From positions 40,013 through 104,012 of the forward strand of contig JAWXUI010000003.1 in the NCBI GenBank assembly GCA_044432805.1: 64,000 nucleotides of DNA, read 5' to 3'. The position numbers were made by a program, and so were the translations under genes. Below the pieces are notes generated by a model, which was not told the origin of the DNA, did not search any database, and saw only the letters and a list, made by a program, of their open reading frames with translations. Source of the DNA: Mycoplasmatota bacterium (GTDB taxonomy: Bacteria > Bacillota_I > Bacilli_A > RF39 > UBA660). This document shows, piece by piece, positions 12,236 through 52,278 of this stretch (positions are counted from its first letter, which is position 1; each line of letters opens with the position of its first letter).

Positions 12236-13114
12236 TCATTCCTTAATATCTAAAATTTCTAAAATCCTATTTAAATCCGCTACATTTGAGTAAGTAATTT
12301 CTATTTTTTTGTCTTTTACTTTAACTTTTGTGTCTAGTTTTTCTCTCATGATGCTTTCTACATATTTATATTTAGGATTTTGTGGTTTTTTTTCTATTTT
12401 ATTCTTCTTTTTAAATGTATTAGTCATTTCTTCTATGTCTCTTACATTTATTTTTTCTTCAACAATTTTATTTGCTATTTGTAAAATTTGTTCTTTATCT
12501 TCTAATTTGCTCAATAATCTAGCATGACTCATACTTAATTTTTTCGAGTTAATTAAATCTTGAACTTCTTCTGGCAGATTTAATAATCCTAACATATTTG
12601 TTAAATGGCTTCTACTTTTTCCTACTTTTTTTGATAATTGTTCTTGAGTAAGAAGTAATTTATCGATTAATGATTTATATGCAAAAGCTTCTTCTATTGC
12701 ACTTAAATTTTCTCTTTGCAAATTTTCTAATAGCGCTATTTCCATCATTTGATCATCGGTAAATGGTCTTATTATTGCTGGAATTGTTTCTTTTTTCGCT
12801 AATTGAGATGCTCTAAATCTTCTTTCTCCGGCTATTATTTCATATCCTTTTATACTTTTCTTTACTATAATAGGTTGAAATACACCGTGTTCTTTTATAG
12901 AATTTGCTAAATCATTTAAAGCTTCTTCGTTAAAAATTTTTCTTGGTTGATATGGATTTGGTCTTAATTGAGTTAATTTCAACTCTGTTATTTCTTCCTT
13001 TGGTGTTGTTTCGTATATGTTTTTTTCTATTGACGCCATATCTAAATTATCAGTATTAAATAATGATTCTAATCCTCTTCCAAGGGCCTTTTTTTTATTT
13101 TCCATTTCTTTCAA
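12236..13114 (-). CDS. parB: Chromosome partitioning protein ParB/Spo0J.
   Basis: It has a ParB N-domain (GERRFRA), an HTH, and GLESLF at the N-terminus. It sits downstream of parA. Confidence 0.9.
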   Translation of the reverse strand: MKEMENKKKALGRGLESLFNTDNLDMASIEKNIYETTPKEEITELKLTQLRPNPYQPRKIFNEEALNDLANSIKEHGVFQPIIVKKSIKGYEIIAGERRFRASQLAKKETIPAIIRPFTDDQMMEIALLENLQRENLSAIEEAFAYKSLIDKLLLTQEQLSKKVGKSRSHLTNMLGLLNLPEEVQDLINSKKLSMSHARLLSKLEDKEQILQIANKIVEEKINVRDIEEMTNTFKKKNKIEKKPQNPKYKYVESIMREKLDTKVKVKDKKIEITYSNVADLNRILEILDIKE

Positions 13115-13880
13115 TCACTTCCTTTGCTAAGTTAAGGTATGCTTCTGTTCCTTTACTATGTGGATCATATGCGATGATTGGTTTCCCATGTGATGGAGAT
13201 TCTGATAATCTAACTAATCTTGGAATAATAGTATCATATACTCTTTCTTTAAAATAACTTTTTATATCTTCTACAACTTCAATTCCTAAATTAGTTCTAT
13301 TATCTAACATCGTCAATAAAACTCCTTCTATATCTAATGTTGGATTAAGATTTTTTTGCGCTAACATAATTGTATTTAACAATTGCATTATTCCTTCTAA
13401 TGCGAAAAATTCACATTGAACTGGTATAATAACCGAATCTGCTGCAGTTAAGGCATTGGTTGTTAATATACCTAATGAAGGAGGACAATCAATTATTATA
13501 TAATCAAACATTTCTTTTGTTATATCTAAATATTTTTTTAATTGATTACCTTTTTCAAATCCGGGTTCAATACGACTTTTTTCCATTAATTCAATATCTG
13601 CCCCAGCTAATTGAATAGTCGCCGGAATAACAAATAAATTTTTAAATTTTGTTTTTACTATTACCTCTTTTAGTTCTGCTTGGTCAATTAATAAATCATA
13701 TGCACTATGCTTTATGTCTGCTTTATTAATCCCTATTCCTGTTGTTGCATTACCTTGAGGATCTAAATCAACTAATAATACTTTTCTTTTTAAAACACCT
13801 AACGATGCGGCTAAATTTATACTCGAAGTAGTTTTTCCTACTCCACCTTTTTGATTTACTAATGCTATTACTTTTCCCAT
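13095..13880 (-). CDS. parA: Chromosome partitioning ATPase ParA/Soj.
   Basis: It carries the KGGVGKTT deviant Walker A and is 261 aa long. Confidence 0.95.
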   Translation of the reverse strand: MGKVIALVNQKGGVGKTTSSINLAASLGVLKRKVLLVDLDPQGNATTGIGINKADIKHSAYDLLIDQAELKEVIVKTKFKNLFVIPATIQLAGADIELMEKSRIEPGFEKGNQLKKYLDITKEMFDYIIIDCPPSLGILTTNALTAADSVIIPVQCEFFALEGIMQLLNTIMLAQKNLNPTLDIEGVLLTMLDNRTNLGIEVVEDIKSYFKERVYDTIIPRLVRLSESPSHGKPIIAYDPHSKGTEAYLNLAKEVIERNGK

Positions 13881-13952: not shown

Positions 13953-13982
13953 TTTAAAAAAACTCAATCATATGATTGAGAA
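13953..13982 (-). terminator. Hairpin (CTCAATCATATGATTGAG) flanked by an A-run and a T-run; an intrinsic terminator after the noc-like gene that may act bidirectionally.
   Basis: An 18-bp palindrome at 13963-13980 has AAAAAAAA upstream and TCTTTTTT downstream, in the parA-noc intergenic region. Confidence 0.55.
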
Positions 13983-13989
13983 ATCTTTT

Positions 13990-15411
13990 TTATTTTTTTG
14001 TTATTTTAAATGTTGCTTGATAAAGATTTGGTAAATCCATTTCATCTAAATCTAAAACGTAACCATATCCTTCGATTGTTTTTGCACATTCTCTAATAGC
14101 ATTAACAACTGTTTTCATATTAACACCTTCAACTATTGGGGTTTCATATGGTTTAATTTCAATTTCTTCTGTATCTCTTAAAGCATAATTATTATATACT
14201 GGTGTTACTATTGGCGCTACTTCTTCTTTAGGAGTATCATCCAATGGTTCATAAAACTTTGAATAATCAATTTCTGTTGGCACCGGAGTGACAATTGGAC
14301 TTTCCTCAGTCTTTGATAATGCGTTATCATTAGATTCTAAGAAAGGTGATGTTTGTTCTGAATTTTCAACAACTGCTTCTACCGGTTTAAATAATGGTTC
14401 TGGTTGAACATTATTTATTAATGATATTTTTTCTTCTACTTTAGGAACTATTACTTCTTCTTCTGGCATCATATTGAAAAATCTACCAGGTTTAACCGCT
14501 TCTTCTATAGTTGGTACTTGTTCAACTTTAACTTCTGGCGTTGATGATTGTAACAATGTATCCATATTAGCTAAAGGTTTTGGTTGATATATATCTTGGC
14601 TATTATTTAATAAACTTTCTATTGAAATAATATCACTTGAATTTGTTTCTTGCATTGGATTCATTGTTATATTGCTTTCTGGACTTACAATTTCTGGTAT
14701 TGTAAATTTTGCTTCATTTTCCATTGTTTTCATTTCCTCATTTTGTTCAGGTTTGATTTGATTTTCTAAACTAACTATATTTTCAGGTGTCTTTATATTT
14801 TGATTTGAACCCGACAATATTTCAGTTATTAAAACATCTGTTTTTTTAACTGTTAATCTTTCCTTAACTATTCTTTCTAAAACTGATATTTGATCACTTT
14901 CTTTTTTTAATCTCAATAAAGATCTTGCATGCCTTTCAGATATTTCTTCTTCTAAAAGTGCTTCTTGTACTTCGTCTGATAATTCTAATAGTCTTAGTTT
15001 ATTTGCAATTGTAGGCTGTTTTTTTCCTAGTTTAATTGCTAAATCTTGTTGTGTTAGATAATTCATATCTAATATTTTTTTATATGAAATAGCTTCTTCA
15101 ATTGGAGTTAAATTTTCTCTTTGGACATTTTCAATTAGCGCGACTTCACTGCTTGTTCTATCATTCATATCAGTAACTATTGCTGGAATTTTTTTTCTTC
15201 CTGCTAATACTGAAGCTTTGTATCTTCTTTCTCCAGCAATTATTTCATATTTATCTCCTAATTTTCGAACAACTATCGGTTCTATTACACCATGTTCTTT
15301 TATCGATTTTGCTAATTCATTTAAACTTTCTTCATTAAATTTTATTCTTGGTTGAAATCTATTTGGTAATATTTCTTCAACATCTAATTCAGAAAATATT
15401 CTTTCATTCAT
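13990..15411 (-). CDS. noc: Noc-like ParB-family protein with a long low-complexity insertion.
   Basis: The N-terminal ~210 aa (…PNRFQPR…GERRYKA…TIANKLRLLELSDEVQEAL…ISERHARSLL) and the last ~40 aa (VVNAIRECAKTIEGYGYVLDLDEMD…YQATFKI) align to B. subtilis Noc. About 240 aa rich in E, P, V and T lie between them. Its position between parA and rsmG matches noc. Confidence 0.8.
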   Translation of the reverse strand: MNERIFSELDVEEILPNRFQPRIKFNEESLNELAKSIKEHGVIEPIVVRKLGDKYEIIAGERRYKASVLAGRKKIPAIVTDMNDRTSSEVALIENVQRENLTPIEEAISYKKILDMNYLTQQDLAIKLGKKQPTIANKLRLLELSDEVQEALLEEEISERHARSLLRLKKESDQISVLERIVKERLTVKKTDVLITEILSGSNQNIKTPENIVSLENQIKPEQNEEMKTMENEAKFTIPEIVSPESNITMNPMQETNSSDIISIESLLNNSQDIYQPKPLANMDTLLQSSTPEVKVEQVPTIEEAVKPGRFFNMMPEEEVIVPKVEEKISLINNVQPEPLFKPVEAVVENSEQTSPFLESNDNALSKTEESPIVTPVPTEIDYSKFYEPLDDTPKEEVAPIVTPVYNNYALRDTEEIEIKPYETPIVEGVNMKTVVNAIRECAKTIEGYGYVLDLDEMDLPNLYQATFKITKK

Positions 15412-15537
15412 ATTTACACCTCTTTTTATTCTTCTACTTTATAATAATACTACATCTTGGGAAATAAATCAATTTGTTTTGGGAAATATTTTTGTTTTTT
15501 AAAAAAAACTGCATTATGCGGTTCTTTTTTTATTTGT

Positions 15538-30803: not shown

Positions 30804-30815
30804 TAAAACAAGTAA

Positions 30816-30858
30816 GTTAAATATTTCCCGGGAAATATTTAACTTTTTTATTTTTTTA
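30816..30858 (+). terminator. Intrinsic terminator after gyrA: a 28-bp perfect palindrome followed by a T-run.
   Basis: GTTAAATATTTCCCGGGAAATATTTAAC at 30816-30843 is followed by TTTTTTATTTTTTT. Confidence 0.7.
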
Positions 30859-30989
30859 AATAATACACTAATATACTTGAATAAAAACTTAATGGAACAT
30901 GAAAATATGGTGTAAAAAGCATATAAATTTAAAAACAAGGCCAATATTTAGTGTCGTTTTTTAATTTTTAATAGAAAAAGAAATTGTTA

Positions 30990-31975
30990 ATAATAAAATC
31001 ATGTAAGGTTTCACGTGAAACTTTACAAAAGAATTAGGGAAGATTATTTTAATAAAATTATTAATCAACGACTACAGATACAAAAAACAGTGTAAAATAG
31101 ACATTAATTACCAAAAAACACACTATTTTTAATCAAAACCAATAAAACATAAATAAATTCAATATAAATCAATAAAAAATTTTACGATAAATATTTTTGA
31201 AGAATTAATCAAGGATGTTTTGACTAGAACAACAATTAATGAATATTAATACAAAAACAGTTGGTAATTGTTATAAATAACTTTGTTTCTAACTAAATTT
31301 GATAAAAAAATGAGAATGTCGACAATGAAATTATGCAAAGTTTCACGTGAAACATTCTAAAAAAATTAGATGAACTTGTTTTAATTGAAACAAAATTCAA
31401 TAAATATCGAGAAAAAACAAAGAAAAACAGATGGTAATTGTTATAATTAGTTTATATTTGACTTAAATTAACAAAAAAATAAGTTGTTTGGATACAACTT
31501 ATTTTAATTTTTGTCATTAAACGCAACGTAAAAATAATGAACTTTTAAAAACAATAATATTTATTAAAGTTTTTTTATTTTTTATAAAAAAGAACCTGCT
31601 GACAACAAAATTATGCAAAGTTTCACGTGGAACATTCTAAAAAATTAATTGAACTTATTTTGATTAAAATAAAAAATAATGAGTATTGAAACAAAAAACA
31701 ATAAAAAACAGATGATAATTGTCTTATTATTAACTTAAATTGACGAAAAAACAAAATAATAAGCAAAAAAATAAATTATTTGAATATAACGGTTTTGATT
31801 TTATTATTAAGTACGATGGAAATACAAAGAACTTTTAAATAACAATAATCTTTGGTGCCTTTTTTTAAAATTTTTGATAAAAAAATCCTGTTAAAAATAA
31901 AATTATGCAAAGTTTCGCGTAAAACGTTCAAAAAATCAATAAAAATAGACAATAATTATTATGAATTTATCTTTT
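30990..31975. repeat. Diverged tandem repeats (3-4 units of ~280-330 bp), each containing a 14-bp palindrome GTTTCACGTGAAAC or a near variant.
   Basis: Palindrome copies lie at 31008, 31340, 31620 (GTTTCACGTGGAAC) and 31913 (GTTTCGCGTAAAAC). The flanks are conserved: AAATTATGCAAAGTTTCACGTGAAACATTCTAAAAAA. Secondary conserved blocks also recur: AAAAACAGATGGTAATTGTTATAAT, GAACTTTTAAAAACAATAAT and TTGACTTAAATTAAC. There is no ORF of at least 60 aa. Confidence 0.6.
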
Positions 31976-32111
31976 TTTAACTAAAATTAATATATTTTTT
32001 GAAATAATGATTAAAAAACGCAAAAATCAAATTTAAATTAAACTTGAATTTATTCCCACTATTATATTTAAAAAGTAATACTTGCAAAAAAATGATAATT
32101 AAGGTATATTT

Positions 32112-32190
32112 ATTATGCGCAACATTAATGTTTGAACCAGGTCAGAATTGAAAAATAGCAGCCTTAAAAACCTCTTGGTGTGTGTGCTTT
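32112..32190 (+). ncRNA. ffs: Putative small (4.5S-type) signal recognition particle RNA.
   Basis: CCAGGTCAGAATTGAAAAATAGCAGCC matches the conserved SRP RNA domain IV, which is GGUCAG on one side of the apical stem, a GNRA tetraloop, and AGCAGCC on the other side. TTGCAA-N17-TATATT lies upstream at 32083-32111. The 3' end has a GU-rich partner strand and a T-run. Bacillus places scr in the same tadA-dnaX neighbourhood. Confidence 0.5.
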
Positions 32191-32208
32191 TTTTATTGAG
32201 GTGAAAAA

Positions 32209-37890: not shown

Positions 37891-38724
37891 ATGTCGCAAA
37901 AAAGTTATGATAATACACCAACGTTATATTTAATACCAACACCAATTGGTAATATGCAAGATATAACATTGAGAGCTATAGAAACATTTAAATTCGTTGA
38001 TGTAGTGTTCACAGAAGATACAAGAGATACAGGATTGCTATTGAACCAACTTGAAATAAAAAAGAAAATGGTTCCTAGTCATAAATTTAATGAAGAAATC
38101 AGTAAAAATAAAATGCTAGAATATCTAAAAAACGGACAAAATGTAGGATTAGCTAGTGATAGAGGAACACCAGCGATAAGTGACCCTGGATATATTTTAG
38201 TAAAACATGCAATTGATAATGGATTTAATGTTGTATCATTACCGGGTGCAACAGCGCTTATTCCAGCGTTGATTATGTCAGGAATAAATCCACAACCATT
38301 TCTATTTTACGGGTTTCTTAACAATAAGGAAGGTAAAAAAACAGAAGAACTTCTTGAATTAAAAAATAATAAATCAACACTTATTTTTTACGAATCACCA
38401 CATAGAATAGAAAAAACTCTTGAAATTATGCAAAAAAGTTTAGGAAATAGAAACATAAGTATTTCCCGGGAAATATCAAAAAAATACGAAGAAGTTTATA
38501 GAGGCACAATAAACCTTGTCAAACAAGAAGTAGAAAATGTTAAGGGTGAGTTAGTAATAGTCGTTGAAGGAAATTTAGAAAAACAAAATTTTGATAATAT
38601 AACCGTAATTGAGCACGTTAATTTGTTCATAAAAGAAGGAAAAACAAAAAATGATGCTATAAAATTAGTTGCAAAAGAAAGAAATGTTCCAAAAAGTGAA
38701 ATTTACAACCAATATATTAAATAA
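37891..38724 (+). CDS. rsmI: 16S rRNA 2'-O-ribose C1402 methyltransferase RsmI.
   Basis: It starts TLYLIPTPIGNMQDITLRA and has a tetrapyrrole-methylase fold. Confidence 0.9.
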   Translation: MSQKSYDNTPTLYLIPTPIGNMQDITLRAIETFKFVDVVFTEDTRDTGLLLNQLEIKKKMVPSHKFNEEISKNKMLEYLKNGQNVGLASDRGTPAISDPGYILVKHAIDNGFNVVSLPGATALIPALIMSGINPQPFLFYGFLNNKEGKKTEELLELKNNKSTLIFYESPHRIEKTLEIMQKSLGNRNISISREISKKYEEVYRGTINLVKQEVENVKGELVIVVEGNLEKQNFDNITVIEHVNLFIKEGKTKNDAIKLVAKERNVPKSEIYNQYIK

Positions 38725-38733
38725 AAATAAAGA

Positions 38734-38759
38734 AAAAATATTTCCCGGGAAATATTTTT
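38734..38759 (+). terminator. A 26-bp perfect palindrome between rsmI and pth, possibly a terminator or attenuator.
   Basis: The sequence is AAAAATATTTCCCGGGAAATATTTTT. It shares its core with the gyrA terminator. Confidence 0.5.
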
Positions 38760-45391: not shown

Positions 45392-45439
45392 AGATAAATA
45401 TGATATATTAGTTTCATAAAAATTTTGAAAGAAAGAAAT

Positions 45440-45640
45440 ATATTATTCTTTTTAAAGAGAGTTTGTGAATGCTGAAAACAAATAAAAGAAAATATATTAA
45501 ATGGTTCTGGAATCGCTTAATCTAATAGGTTAAGACGTTTAATGCCCGTTAAGCATTTAAGGTGCATATTGCATAAATTAAGGTGGTACCACGTATTACA
45601 CGTCCTTATCTGGAGGTGTTTTTATATGCAAATAAAGGAG
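45440..45640 (+). promoter_or_regulatory. T-box riboswitch leader of metG.
   Basis: The T-box core AATTAAGGTGGTACCACG lies at 45576-45593. It is followed by the terminator hairpin ACACGTCC…GGAGGTGT plus TTTTTA. The metG RBS and start codon follow immediately. Confidence 0.7.
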
Positions 45641-52144: not shown

Positions 52145-52278
52145 TTTGAATGTGTGACATGCGAAGATGTGTAAGGTTGTCGACACGCCAGGTTAAGTTG
52201 TTAATAAATTTAATTTGAAAGTCGGGTTTTTACGCGGAGCAAGTCTATACAAAGATATAGACGAAAGGAGATACAATT

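Follow-up and report, generated by a model that had tools for sequence, protein, structure and literature searches.

In the current model, the nucleoid occlusion protein Noc acts through an N-terminal amphipathic helix that is exposed by cytidine triphosphate (CTP). The Bacillus subtilis variant NocN-delta-10 and the substitutions F5A, F8A and F9A each lose membrane binding and function (PMC4331003), and a helix of this kind was predicted in every Noc homologue examined by Adams et al. 2015 (PMC4331003). The native helix can be exchanged for a heterologous amphipathic one joined through a flexible linker (Adams et al., PMC4331003), and membrane binding by Noc is intrinsically weak, such that the avidity of many clamps on DNA is needed (PMC4331003). 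In apo-Noc from Geobacillus the helix packs against the N-terminal domain (alpha1/alpha2) and is thereby autoinhibited, and its release by CTP has been proposed (PMC8429893). Here we analyze a Noc-like protein of 473 amino acids (aa) encoded on contig JAWXUI010000003.1 of a Mycoplasmatota bacterium, within a 64-kb stretch (27% guanine plus cytosine, GC) that constitutes our window and whose coordinates are used throughout. The N-terminal amphipathic membrane-targeting helix is absent from this protein and from all of its approximately 260 relatives. Moreover, the DNA-binding core is separated from the C-terminal domain by a long, acidic spacer that is predicted to be disordered. Short motifs are conserved in this spacer, and one of them resembles the core of the lost membrane-targeting sequence.

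The same window had previously been inspected without database searches (hereafter, the sequence-only reading), and the protein was described as a Noc-like ParB paralogue with a long spacer between its DNA-binding core and a Noc C-terminal domain. Pfam, hhalign and PDB matches bear out this description, and the sizes given for B. subtilis Noc (283 aa) and for the new protein (473 aa) are correct. We found no description of this architecture in the papers searched, and we regard the protein as a divergent Noc orthologue whose architecture is apparently undescribed in that literature.

Identity of the 473-aa protein

The gene occupies the classical noc slot between rsmG (gidB) and the soj-spo0J pair near oriC, in a minus-strand order that runs jag-mnmE-mnmG-rsmG, the 473-aa gene, soj-spo0J, and it lies 6.6 kb from dnaA (Table 1). 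Pfam recognizes ParB_N (PF02195, 113 bits) at residues 7-97 and HTH_ParB at residues 99-198, with no match beyond them. The boxes that characterize the CTP-binding N-terminal domain are present as PNRFQPR, GERRYK and IENVQR. Among 38 non-redundant close homologues, GERR, ENVQR and PNRFQPR are invariant, and the forms GERRYKA and IENVQR are family-wide, whereas box II of canonical Noc reads GERRWR. In a search of the PDB, Noc proteins from Geobacillus and Bacillus are the top matches (204 and 181 bits, versus 157-169 bits for Spo0J/ParB proteins), and a neighbour-joining tree of the cores places the long-spacer family with canonical Noc and apart from the ParBs of the same genomes.

Specificity for the Noc-binding site (NBS) versus parS is set by residues Q173/K179/K184/R201 (Caulobacter numbering), and one permissive lysine suffices (Jalal et al. 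2020, PMC7383237). The corresponding residues in the helix-turn-helix (HTH) region of our protein are Q132, K138, E143 and R160, all but E143 being invariant across the family. Because Q132, K138 and R160 match and a single permissive lysine is enough (PMC7383237), the protein carries the Noc specificity code. The pattern is Q-K-[N/E]-R in the long-spacer family, Q-K-K-R in canonical Noc, and R-M-N-S or R-V-R-G in ParBs of the same genomes. Residues of the parS-specific type (R173, G201) are absent from our protein, which has Q and R there, and the ParA-stimulating N-terminal peptide LG[KR]GL of ParB is absent from it as well. One sublineage of the family (L003, L004 and P0171) carries Q-T-[S/N]-R, with no permissive lysine at 179 or 184; by the rules of Jalal 2020 its NBS binding should be weak or gone, and no NBS was found in the short loci of L003 and L004.

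The C-terminal domain of the family aligns end to end with that of canonical Noc over 45 columns (hhalign, 97.8% probability, E 9.5e-13). This homology emerged only by profile-profile comparison, and the domain alone gave no match to NCBIfam. The chromosomal ParB/Spo0J encoded next door shares both Pfam domains with our protein, the cores being 47% identical over 183 residues, and a CTP-clamp architecture is expected. However, its R-M-N-S residues, LGRGL ParA-activating motif, short linker and ParB_C-type C-terminal domain are all missing from the long-spacer protein. With canonical Noc (B. subtilis YyaA; G. thermoleovorans Noc, PDB 7NFU/7NG0/7OL9; TIGR04285), our protein shares the chromosomal slot, the CTP boxes, the Q/K/R residues, the alpha-beta-beta C-terminal domain and an identical predicted 16-bp NBS. 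The two differ in the linker, which is short and basic in canonical Noc but is an acidic disordered spacer of 136-736 aa with conserved motifs in the long-spacer family. They differ also in the position of an RFF-type motif, which lies in the N-terminal helix of canonical Noc but is internal in the long-spacer family, where about 30 N-terminal residues are gone.

Candidate binding sites are present as well. Three perfect NBS 16-mers occur in the window and none in 100 shuffles, and an unbiased count of recurrent 14-nt perfect palindromes returns only the NBS (3 copies) and parS (2 copies). Three relatives (L001, L012 and L014, with 530-, 605- and 537-aa proteins) each carry one perfect NBS no more than 300 bp upstream of the gene. 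We considered whether the NBS is simply a terminator hairpin and rejected this idea, since one of the three sites is in coding sequence and the identical 16-mer recurs in relatives. Two of the sites lie 279 bp apart around the 3' end of the rsmI-like methylase gene (38460-38754).

Judged from sequence, there is strong support for the 473-aa protein being a divergent orthologue of Noc, from an uncultured lineage of low-GC Bacilli/'Mycoplasmatota'. It resembles Noc in its CTP boxes, its HTH specificity residues, its C-terminal domain, the NBS sites near it and its gene neighbourhood, and it lacks the N-terminal membrane helix and a TIGR04285 score above the cutoff. Because the CTP-binding domain, the Noc HTH code, the C-terminal dimerisation domain and the NBS sites have been kept, the protein should load at the NBS as a CTP-gated sliding clamp. 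Leaving aside any role at the membrane, we consider it very probable that this is a Noc-type NBS clamp that has no N-terminal helix and bears conserved motifs in a disordered spacer.

Public annotation names the protein only as a 'ParB/RepB/Spo0J family partition protein'. This generic label and the subthreshold TIGR04285 score are what might be seen if the gene encoded an ordinary parS-binding ParB, or if a frameshift or an assembly error had fused a ParB-like gene to an unrelated open reading frame (ORF). Either explanation is almost certainly wrong. The ORF is real rather than an artefact because the identical 473-aa protein, with the same neighbours, is found on at least eight independently assembled contigs from several sequencing runs, and the architecture recurs in hundreds of clusters. 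In addition, the C-terminus is a bona fide Noc domain, the specificity residues are QKER rather than RxxG/S, and a separate canonical ParB gene and parS cluster (31.0-31.6 kb) are present in the same window. A frameshift or gene fusion, or a folded domain in the insertion of orthologues, would have spoken against the sequence-only reading; we found no frameshift or fusion, and no folded domain in the orthologues modelled. Public annotation and the TIGR04285 cutoff overlook a whole branch of Noc.

Loss of the N-terminal helix

Merely seven residues lie ahead of the core. Residue 8 pairs with Noc residue 30, and the canonical N-terminal stretch of about 22-30 residues, comprising the membrane-targeting helix, alpha2 and a loop, is gone. 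The earlier statement that residues 1-210 and the last ~40 aa align with Noc is therefore accurate for the core and the C-terminal domain, but the first ~22-30 residues of Noc have no counterpart. The 126-nt gap to rsmG contains five in-frame stops, the nearest of them 9 codons ahead of the ATG, and the upstream in-frame translation ends with a stop followed by SRRIKRGVNM. Because of these stops, no N-terminal extension of the protein is possible.

The same truncation is seen throughout the family. Each of the 38 non-redundant close homologues begins with M..E[RK]KVVEL.LDDILPNRFQPR. We also searched 1.84 billion cluster representatives exhaustively with the core only, and the best 150 matches are 58-76% identical to it and 291-982 aa long. 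PNRFQPR could be placed in 148 of these best 150; its first residue falls between 15 and 22 in 147 proteins and is residue 34 in the remaining one. Canonical Nocs (279-298 aa) start MKH[PS]FSRFFGLGEKE and have PNRFQPR at residues 39-51.

Given the current model, a large clade of Noc proteins without the helix would surprise specialists. Such a family would have either another mode of membrane binding or another route to nucleoid occlusion. The sequence-only reading had suggested that the spacer could alter the reach of a normal Noc membrane anchor. This proposal fails in that form, since the N-terminal anchor is absent family-wide and the sole anchor-like sequence lies inside the spacer.

Spacer islands and possible routes to the membrane

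We built an AlphaFold2 model of the 473-aa protein with a 38-sequence alignment. The predicted local distance difference test (pLDDT) falls below 50 at residues 204-261, 289-338, 340-372 and 391-423, with semi-ordered islands at 262-288 and 373-390, which agrees with the disorder anticipated for this region. No folded domain was found in the spacer in two AlphaFold models (this protein, and P0005, a relative with canonical islands), and there is no Pfam match. The spacer consists of 15.5% E, 10.8% P and 8.6% each of N, I and V, and is also rich in S and T. It had been called acidic, proline-rich and low-complexity. The compositional bias and the charge are real, but the window entropy (3.23 bits, versus 3.28 for the folded core) indicates a biased composition rather than low complexity, and four conserved motifs are present. 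The recurring patterns remarked upon earlier do exist (PIVTPV twice, EEV twice and P..E seven times), and the nucleotide-level check for periodicity proposed at that time revealed no tandem or direct repeats in this spacer.

Across 148 cluster representatives the spacer spans 136-736 aa (median 321) and carries a net negative charge in every case (median -13 per 100 aa), with a composition of approximately 19% acidic, 5% basic, 11% proline and 6% aromatic residues. Alignment with orthologues, as had been recommended, establishes that the insertion is lineage-wide and length-variable. Spacers cannot be aligned between lineages and often contain lineage-specific tandem repeats. Length is constant within lineages, where a 466-aa protein is found in 23/30 members of one and a 605-aa protein in 34/50 members of another, and within-lineage identity is 86-88% for the spacer versus 97-99% for the core; the spacer evolves 5-10 times faster. 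Hence the earlier alternative of a hypervariable region applies between lineages but not within them, and this is ordinary disordered-region evolution rather than a strain-level hypervariable locus. The spacers of P0197, P0129, P0241, P0184 and P0231 contain many tandem short Phe-containing units, such as MPSFETPVEQQP about 25 times, PQFNPFTSQQPQE.., QPVNQFGGMNEVPQMNAS and QGGYQFDASGRVVGEP; our protein has no such repeats.

Four short motifs, which we designate islands A to D (Table 1), are conserved in the spacer at 10- to 500-fold over shuffled controls. Counts are given as the number of spacers with a match among the 148 representatives versus the mean of shuffled controls, and an unbiased test of 4-mers recovers exactly these motifs: NPGF (67 versus 0.8), GKFF (57 versus 0.1), KFFN (49 versus 0.8), PIIE (44 versus 3.5), FNIP (35 versus 2.3) and KQYD (27 versus 0.1). 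The order of island B followed by island C is invariant. In our protein, island B has lost its NPGF start and is modelled with short helices at a pLDDT of 60-68, and that of P0005 has one short helix at ~64; the island B profile gave only chance matches to the PDB (E of at least 0.26) and no Pfam similarity. Island D of our protein reads EIDYSKFYEPL. Some elements are multi-copy, including the unit P[IV][IV][ED] (208 occurrences versus 23 expected), with PIVTPV being an instance of P[IV][IV][ED/T], and motifs of the form [DENT][IVM]P[STKNA]F (38 occurrences versus 5.3).

The conservation of these islands bears on whether the family is simply a degenerate Noc, one that has lost its helix and hence nucleoid occlusion, as in B. 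subtilis NocN-delta-10, and that persists as an NBS-bound nucleoid protein with tolerated, fast-evolving filler. NocN-delta-10 does bind the nucleoid while being non-functional (PMC4331003), the spacer does evolve 5-10 times faster than the core, and in our protein island B is degenerate and E44 replaces Q68. Nevertheless, we regard this explanation as highly improbable. Strong purifying selection acts on the core, which retains 58-76% identity over at least 150 clusters defined at 50% identity, and 97-99% when members of one lineage are compared. Perfect NBS sites have been kept, and the spacer shows both conserved islands and a constant length within each lineage.

Island C is the element that most resembles a membrane anchor. 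In our protein it reads VKPG-R310-F311-F312-N-M-M-P-E-E-E, and the family consensus is KPGKFFNLF.EEE, both similar to the canonical membrane-targeting core of Noc, S-R7-F8-F9-G-L-G-E-K-E-E. The pattern [KR]FF[NG][LMIF] occurs in 60/148 spacers versus 0.19 expected, and the looser [KR][FY]F in 113/148 versus 7.4. Island C is the strongest hydrophobic-moment peak of our spacer. Among 194 homologues, the six residues after its K/R rank in the top 1.3% of hydrophobicity of their own spacer, and the next ten have a mean charge of -2.6; the K/R itself is among the very few basic positions of an acidic spacer. The median distance from island C is 146 residues to the clamp body and 158 to the C-terminal domain. 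Like the membrane-targeting sequences at the C-termini of MinD and FtsA and the N-termini of SepF and Noc, it places a hydrophobic Phe-Phe/Leu face after a basic residue, and is short and presumably weak. However, those sequences are terminal and sit beside a folded domain, whereas island C lies in the middle of a disordered region with Pro/Gly and acidic flanks and no predicted helix. Island C also resembles the MinD sequences ...KSFFG and ...RLFGG.

By analogy, we infer that the lost helix has been replaced by island C, acting as an internal contact with the membrane that depends on avidity, because Noc accepts a substitute helix on a flexible linker and binds the membrane weakly, through avidity (Adams et al., PMC4331003). 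The clamp would load at the NBS and then spread, and arrays of clamps would display many RFF motifs on leashes of ~100-150 residues that bind the membrane jointly. NBS-rich, origin-proximal DNA would in this way be drawn to the membrane with a longer reach than that of canonical Noc. Island C would be unable to pack on the N-terminal domain as alpha1/alpha2 do in canonical apo-Noc, so that gating would have to differ, depending on avidity or on another island. The acidic spacer would hold the motifs off DNA, two arms of ~230 aa would greatly enlarge the lumen of the clamp, and the partners of the protein are probably recruited or regulated through islands A, B and D. For the complete reading, in which an NBS-loading Noc clamp reaches the membrane via an internal island C motif on a long leash, we judge the case to be evenly balanced. 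If true, membrane engagement would depend on avidity and tether geometry, unlike the alpha1/alpha2 autoinhibition of Geobacillus Noc.

Several observations weigh against this reading, some of which concern the anchor and others the clamp. Island C spans only 5-7 residues, and AlphaFold predicts no helix there (pLDDT ~38). A literal [KR][FY]F is missing from 35/148 representatives; some of these 35 have variants such as LLGFFGKK, SLFNLF or NFFGI, and others have only repeated motifs of the PSFE/FNPF/FDIF type. The acidic surroundings should disfavour binding to anionic membranes. Furthermore, island C is also similar to the N-terminal LG[KR]GLxxLF peptide with which ParB contacts ParA, and such likeness in sequence cannot separate lipid from protein binding. 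As for the clamp, position 184 is E or N in the long-spacer family and K in canonical Noc, and TIGR04285, the best NCBIfam model, scores 277.7 bits against a cutoff of 315 with model positions 4-220/255 covered. Finally, the subclade of our protein (P0001-P0004 and P0258) has E44 (codon 15280-15282; box I HGVI-E-PIVV) in place of Q68 of B. subtilis Noc. Gln occupies this site in 229/236 members of the long-spacer family and in 119/119 canonical Nocs, and Q68R abolishes spreading of B. subtilis Noc (PMC4331003).

The similarity to a ParA-contact peptide introduces a second explanation, in which the spacer motifs, including island C, dock proteins (FtsZ, FtsA, SepF or EzrA; or Soj, SMC or DnaA) rather than lipid, and division or segregation is blocked or organized by recruitment in the manner of SlmA and FtsZ, without any tethering of DNA to the membrane. 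The ParA-binding N-terminal peptide of the neighbouring ParB, KALGRGLESLFN, provides one such likeness for island C. The existence of four distinct conserved motifs with a fixed B-then-C order, the strong acidity of the spacer and the enrichment of [DENT][IVM]P[STKNA]F are consistent with docking, as is the combination of intermediate pLDDT and a short helix in island B, characteristic of segments whose folding is coupled to partner binding. However, no partner has been identified, island B is without PDB or Pfam similarity, and several genomes of the family have no adjacent soj, so that a role specific to Soj would not be general. Among the motifs known to us, moreover, none that binds protein fits island C as specifically as the experimentally defined R-F-F-G-L membrane core. 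On balance we consider protein docking unlikely, although it is the most credible of the alternatives to membrane contact. Two specific forms of docking were examined and set aside. Mimicry of the FtsZ C-terminal peptide by IP[TS]/[IV]PxF is weakly supported, since F is followed by E, N or D and not by L/M; no ftsZ is encoded within the 64-kb window for comparison. Motifs of the beta-clamp or SSB-tip type are also unrepresented, with no pattern like QL[SD]LF or DDDIPF.

A third explanation gives the spacer a physical role. Its aromatic and P-phi-phi-E stickers might drive or tune the condensation or bridging of Noc clamps around the NBS, with the motifs being self-association elements, or the spacer might be an entropic bristle or provide a larger lumen for passing roadblocks. 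The multi-copy nature of P[IV][IV][ED], the F-rich tandem repeats in many homologues, the abundance of aromatic, proline and acidic residues in spacers that are all net negative, and the 5-fold variation in length between lineages with conserved termini are all compatible with such a function. However, uniformly high negative charge opposes self-association, and the occurrence of islands B, C and D as single copies, in a conserved relative arrangement, fits specific recognition better than generic stickers. This explanation, which is compatible with membrane contact via island C, also leaves the replacement of the lost membrane link unexplained, and we find it improbable as the principal function.

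Returning to membrane contact via island C, a broader and more tentative scenario can be sketched, which as a whole we hold to be somewhat doubtful. A large, uncultured radiation of Bacilli may have rebuilt Noc by losing the CTP-gated helix and moving contact with the membrane, and possibly with the divisome, to motifs in an acidic leash. Engagement would then depend on avidity or tether geometry, and the protein might be the sole ParB-family member at the origin where soj-spo0J is absent. The family would in any case offer a natural experiment on the position and autoinhibition of a membrane-targeting sequence, on the effects of tether length and charge in DNA-membrane coupling, and on a huge lumen in ParB-type sliding.

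Relatives, gene boundaries and neighbouring features

The long-spacer architecture is found in hundreds of clusters, including at least 150 at 50% identity. Its carriers are uncultured metagenome-assembled genomes labelled Mycoplasmatota, Bacilli or Firmicutes bacterium, many of which derive from human and animal gut metagenomes. In the 21-kb loci of four relatives (L011-L014, with 466-, 605-, 415- and 537-aa proteins), the gene follows rsmG near dnaA and is not followed by a soj/spo0J pair, the place of which is taken by a uvrB, mscL or ATPase gene. No parS with up to two mismatches was found in these four loci, and the long Noc may be the sole ParB-family protein at the origin in these lineages. 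Several relatives' loci encode SpoIIR, ComK, a Mur ligase and an alanine racemase, which suggests that these organisms are walled Bacillota rather than wall-less mollicutes.

In our window, the long-spacer noc gene has its own promoter-like site and its own terminator (Table 1), and it is probably monocistronic.

Table 1. Features of the long-spacer noc gene, its product and its surroundings, in window coordinates
Feature	Coordinates	Strand	Residues and details	Basis
Long-spacer noc gene, complete	13990..15411	-	473 aa; stop codon 13990-13992	ORF
ParB/Noc core	14803..15411	-	1-203	Pfam, PDB matches, pLDDT 85-97
Acidic Pro-rich spacer, predicted disordered	14122..14802	-	204-430, ~227 aa, net charge -28	composition, pLDDT
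Island A	14680..14715	-	233-244 (FTIPEIVSPE); family motif [FN].IP[TS].PI[IV][ED]	regular expression, 42/148 spacers versus 0.4 shuffled
Island B	14548..14640	-	258-288, SSDIISIESLLNNSQDIYQPKPLANMDTLLQ; family motif NPGF.D[VI]..IE..A.DI..EKP.A..D.LL	conservation
Island C	14455..14496	-	306-319, VKPGRFFNMMPEEE; motif [KR]FF[NG][LMIF] plus acidic run	in 34/38 non-redundant homologues
Island D, upstream of C-terminal domain	14242..14280	-	378-390, TEIDYSKFYEPLD; family motif PIIITDY.KQYDP[VI][ML]P	KQYD in 27/148; pLDDT 52-60
Noc-type C-terminal dimerisation domain	13993..14121	-	431-473, one helix and two strands	hhalign, pLDDT ~90
Shine-Dalgarno sequence, strong	15417..15425	-	AAAGAGGTG, 5-6 nt 5' of ATG	sequence
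Promoter-like site upstream of noc gene	15472-15444	-	TTGATT-17-TATTAT	sequence
Intrinsic terminator	13963..13980	-	hairpin then T-run, directly past stop codon	sequence
soj (parA)	13095-13880	-	directly downstream of noc gene	
spo0J (parB)	12236-13114	-	parS-type specificity residues R-M-N-S; N-terminal LGRGL ParA-interaction motif	
NBS, perfect 16 bp	30822..30837	.	TATTTCCCGGGAAATA, within gyrA terminator palindrome	exact match to B. subtilis NBS
Predicted NBS, perfect 16 bp	38460..38475	.	inside rsmI-like gene (37891-38724)	exact match
Predicted NBS, perfect 16 bp	38739..38754	.	54-bp gap between rsmI-like gene and pth	exact match

The NBS next to gyrA stands at the left edge of a 1.3-kb region without ORFs (30804-32110), which extends from gyrA to the gene for the signal recognition particle (SRP) RNA. 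The region is made up of four direct repeats, degenerate in sequence and ~280-330 bp in length. A parS-like palindrome is found in every repeat (at 31007, 31339 and 31619, and in degenerate form at ~31910), with AAATTATGCAA before it and a promoter-like AACAGATGGTAATTGTTATAAT after it. A parS array therefore adjoins an NBS at this place, ~9 kb from dnaA. Ordinary RNA elements in the window are the small SRP RNA itself (32111-32196), a T-box leader (45416-45610) and an S10 ribosomal-protein leader (52156-52264).

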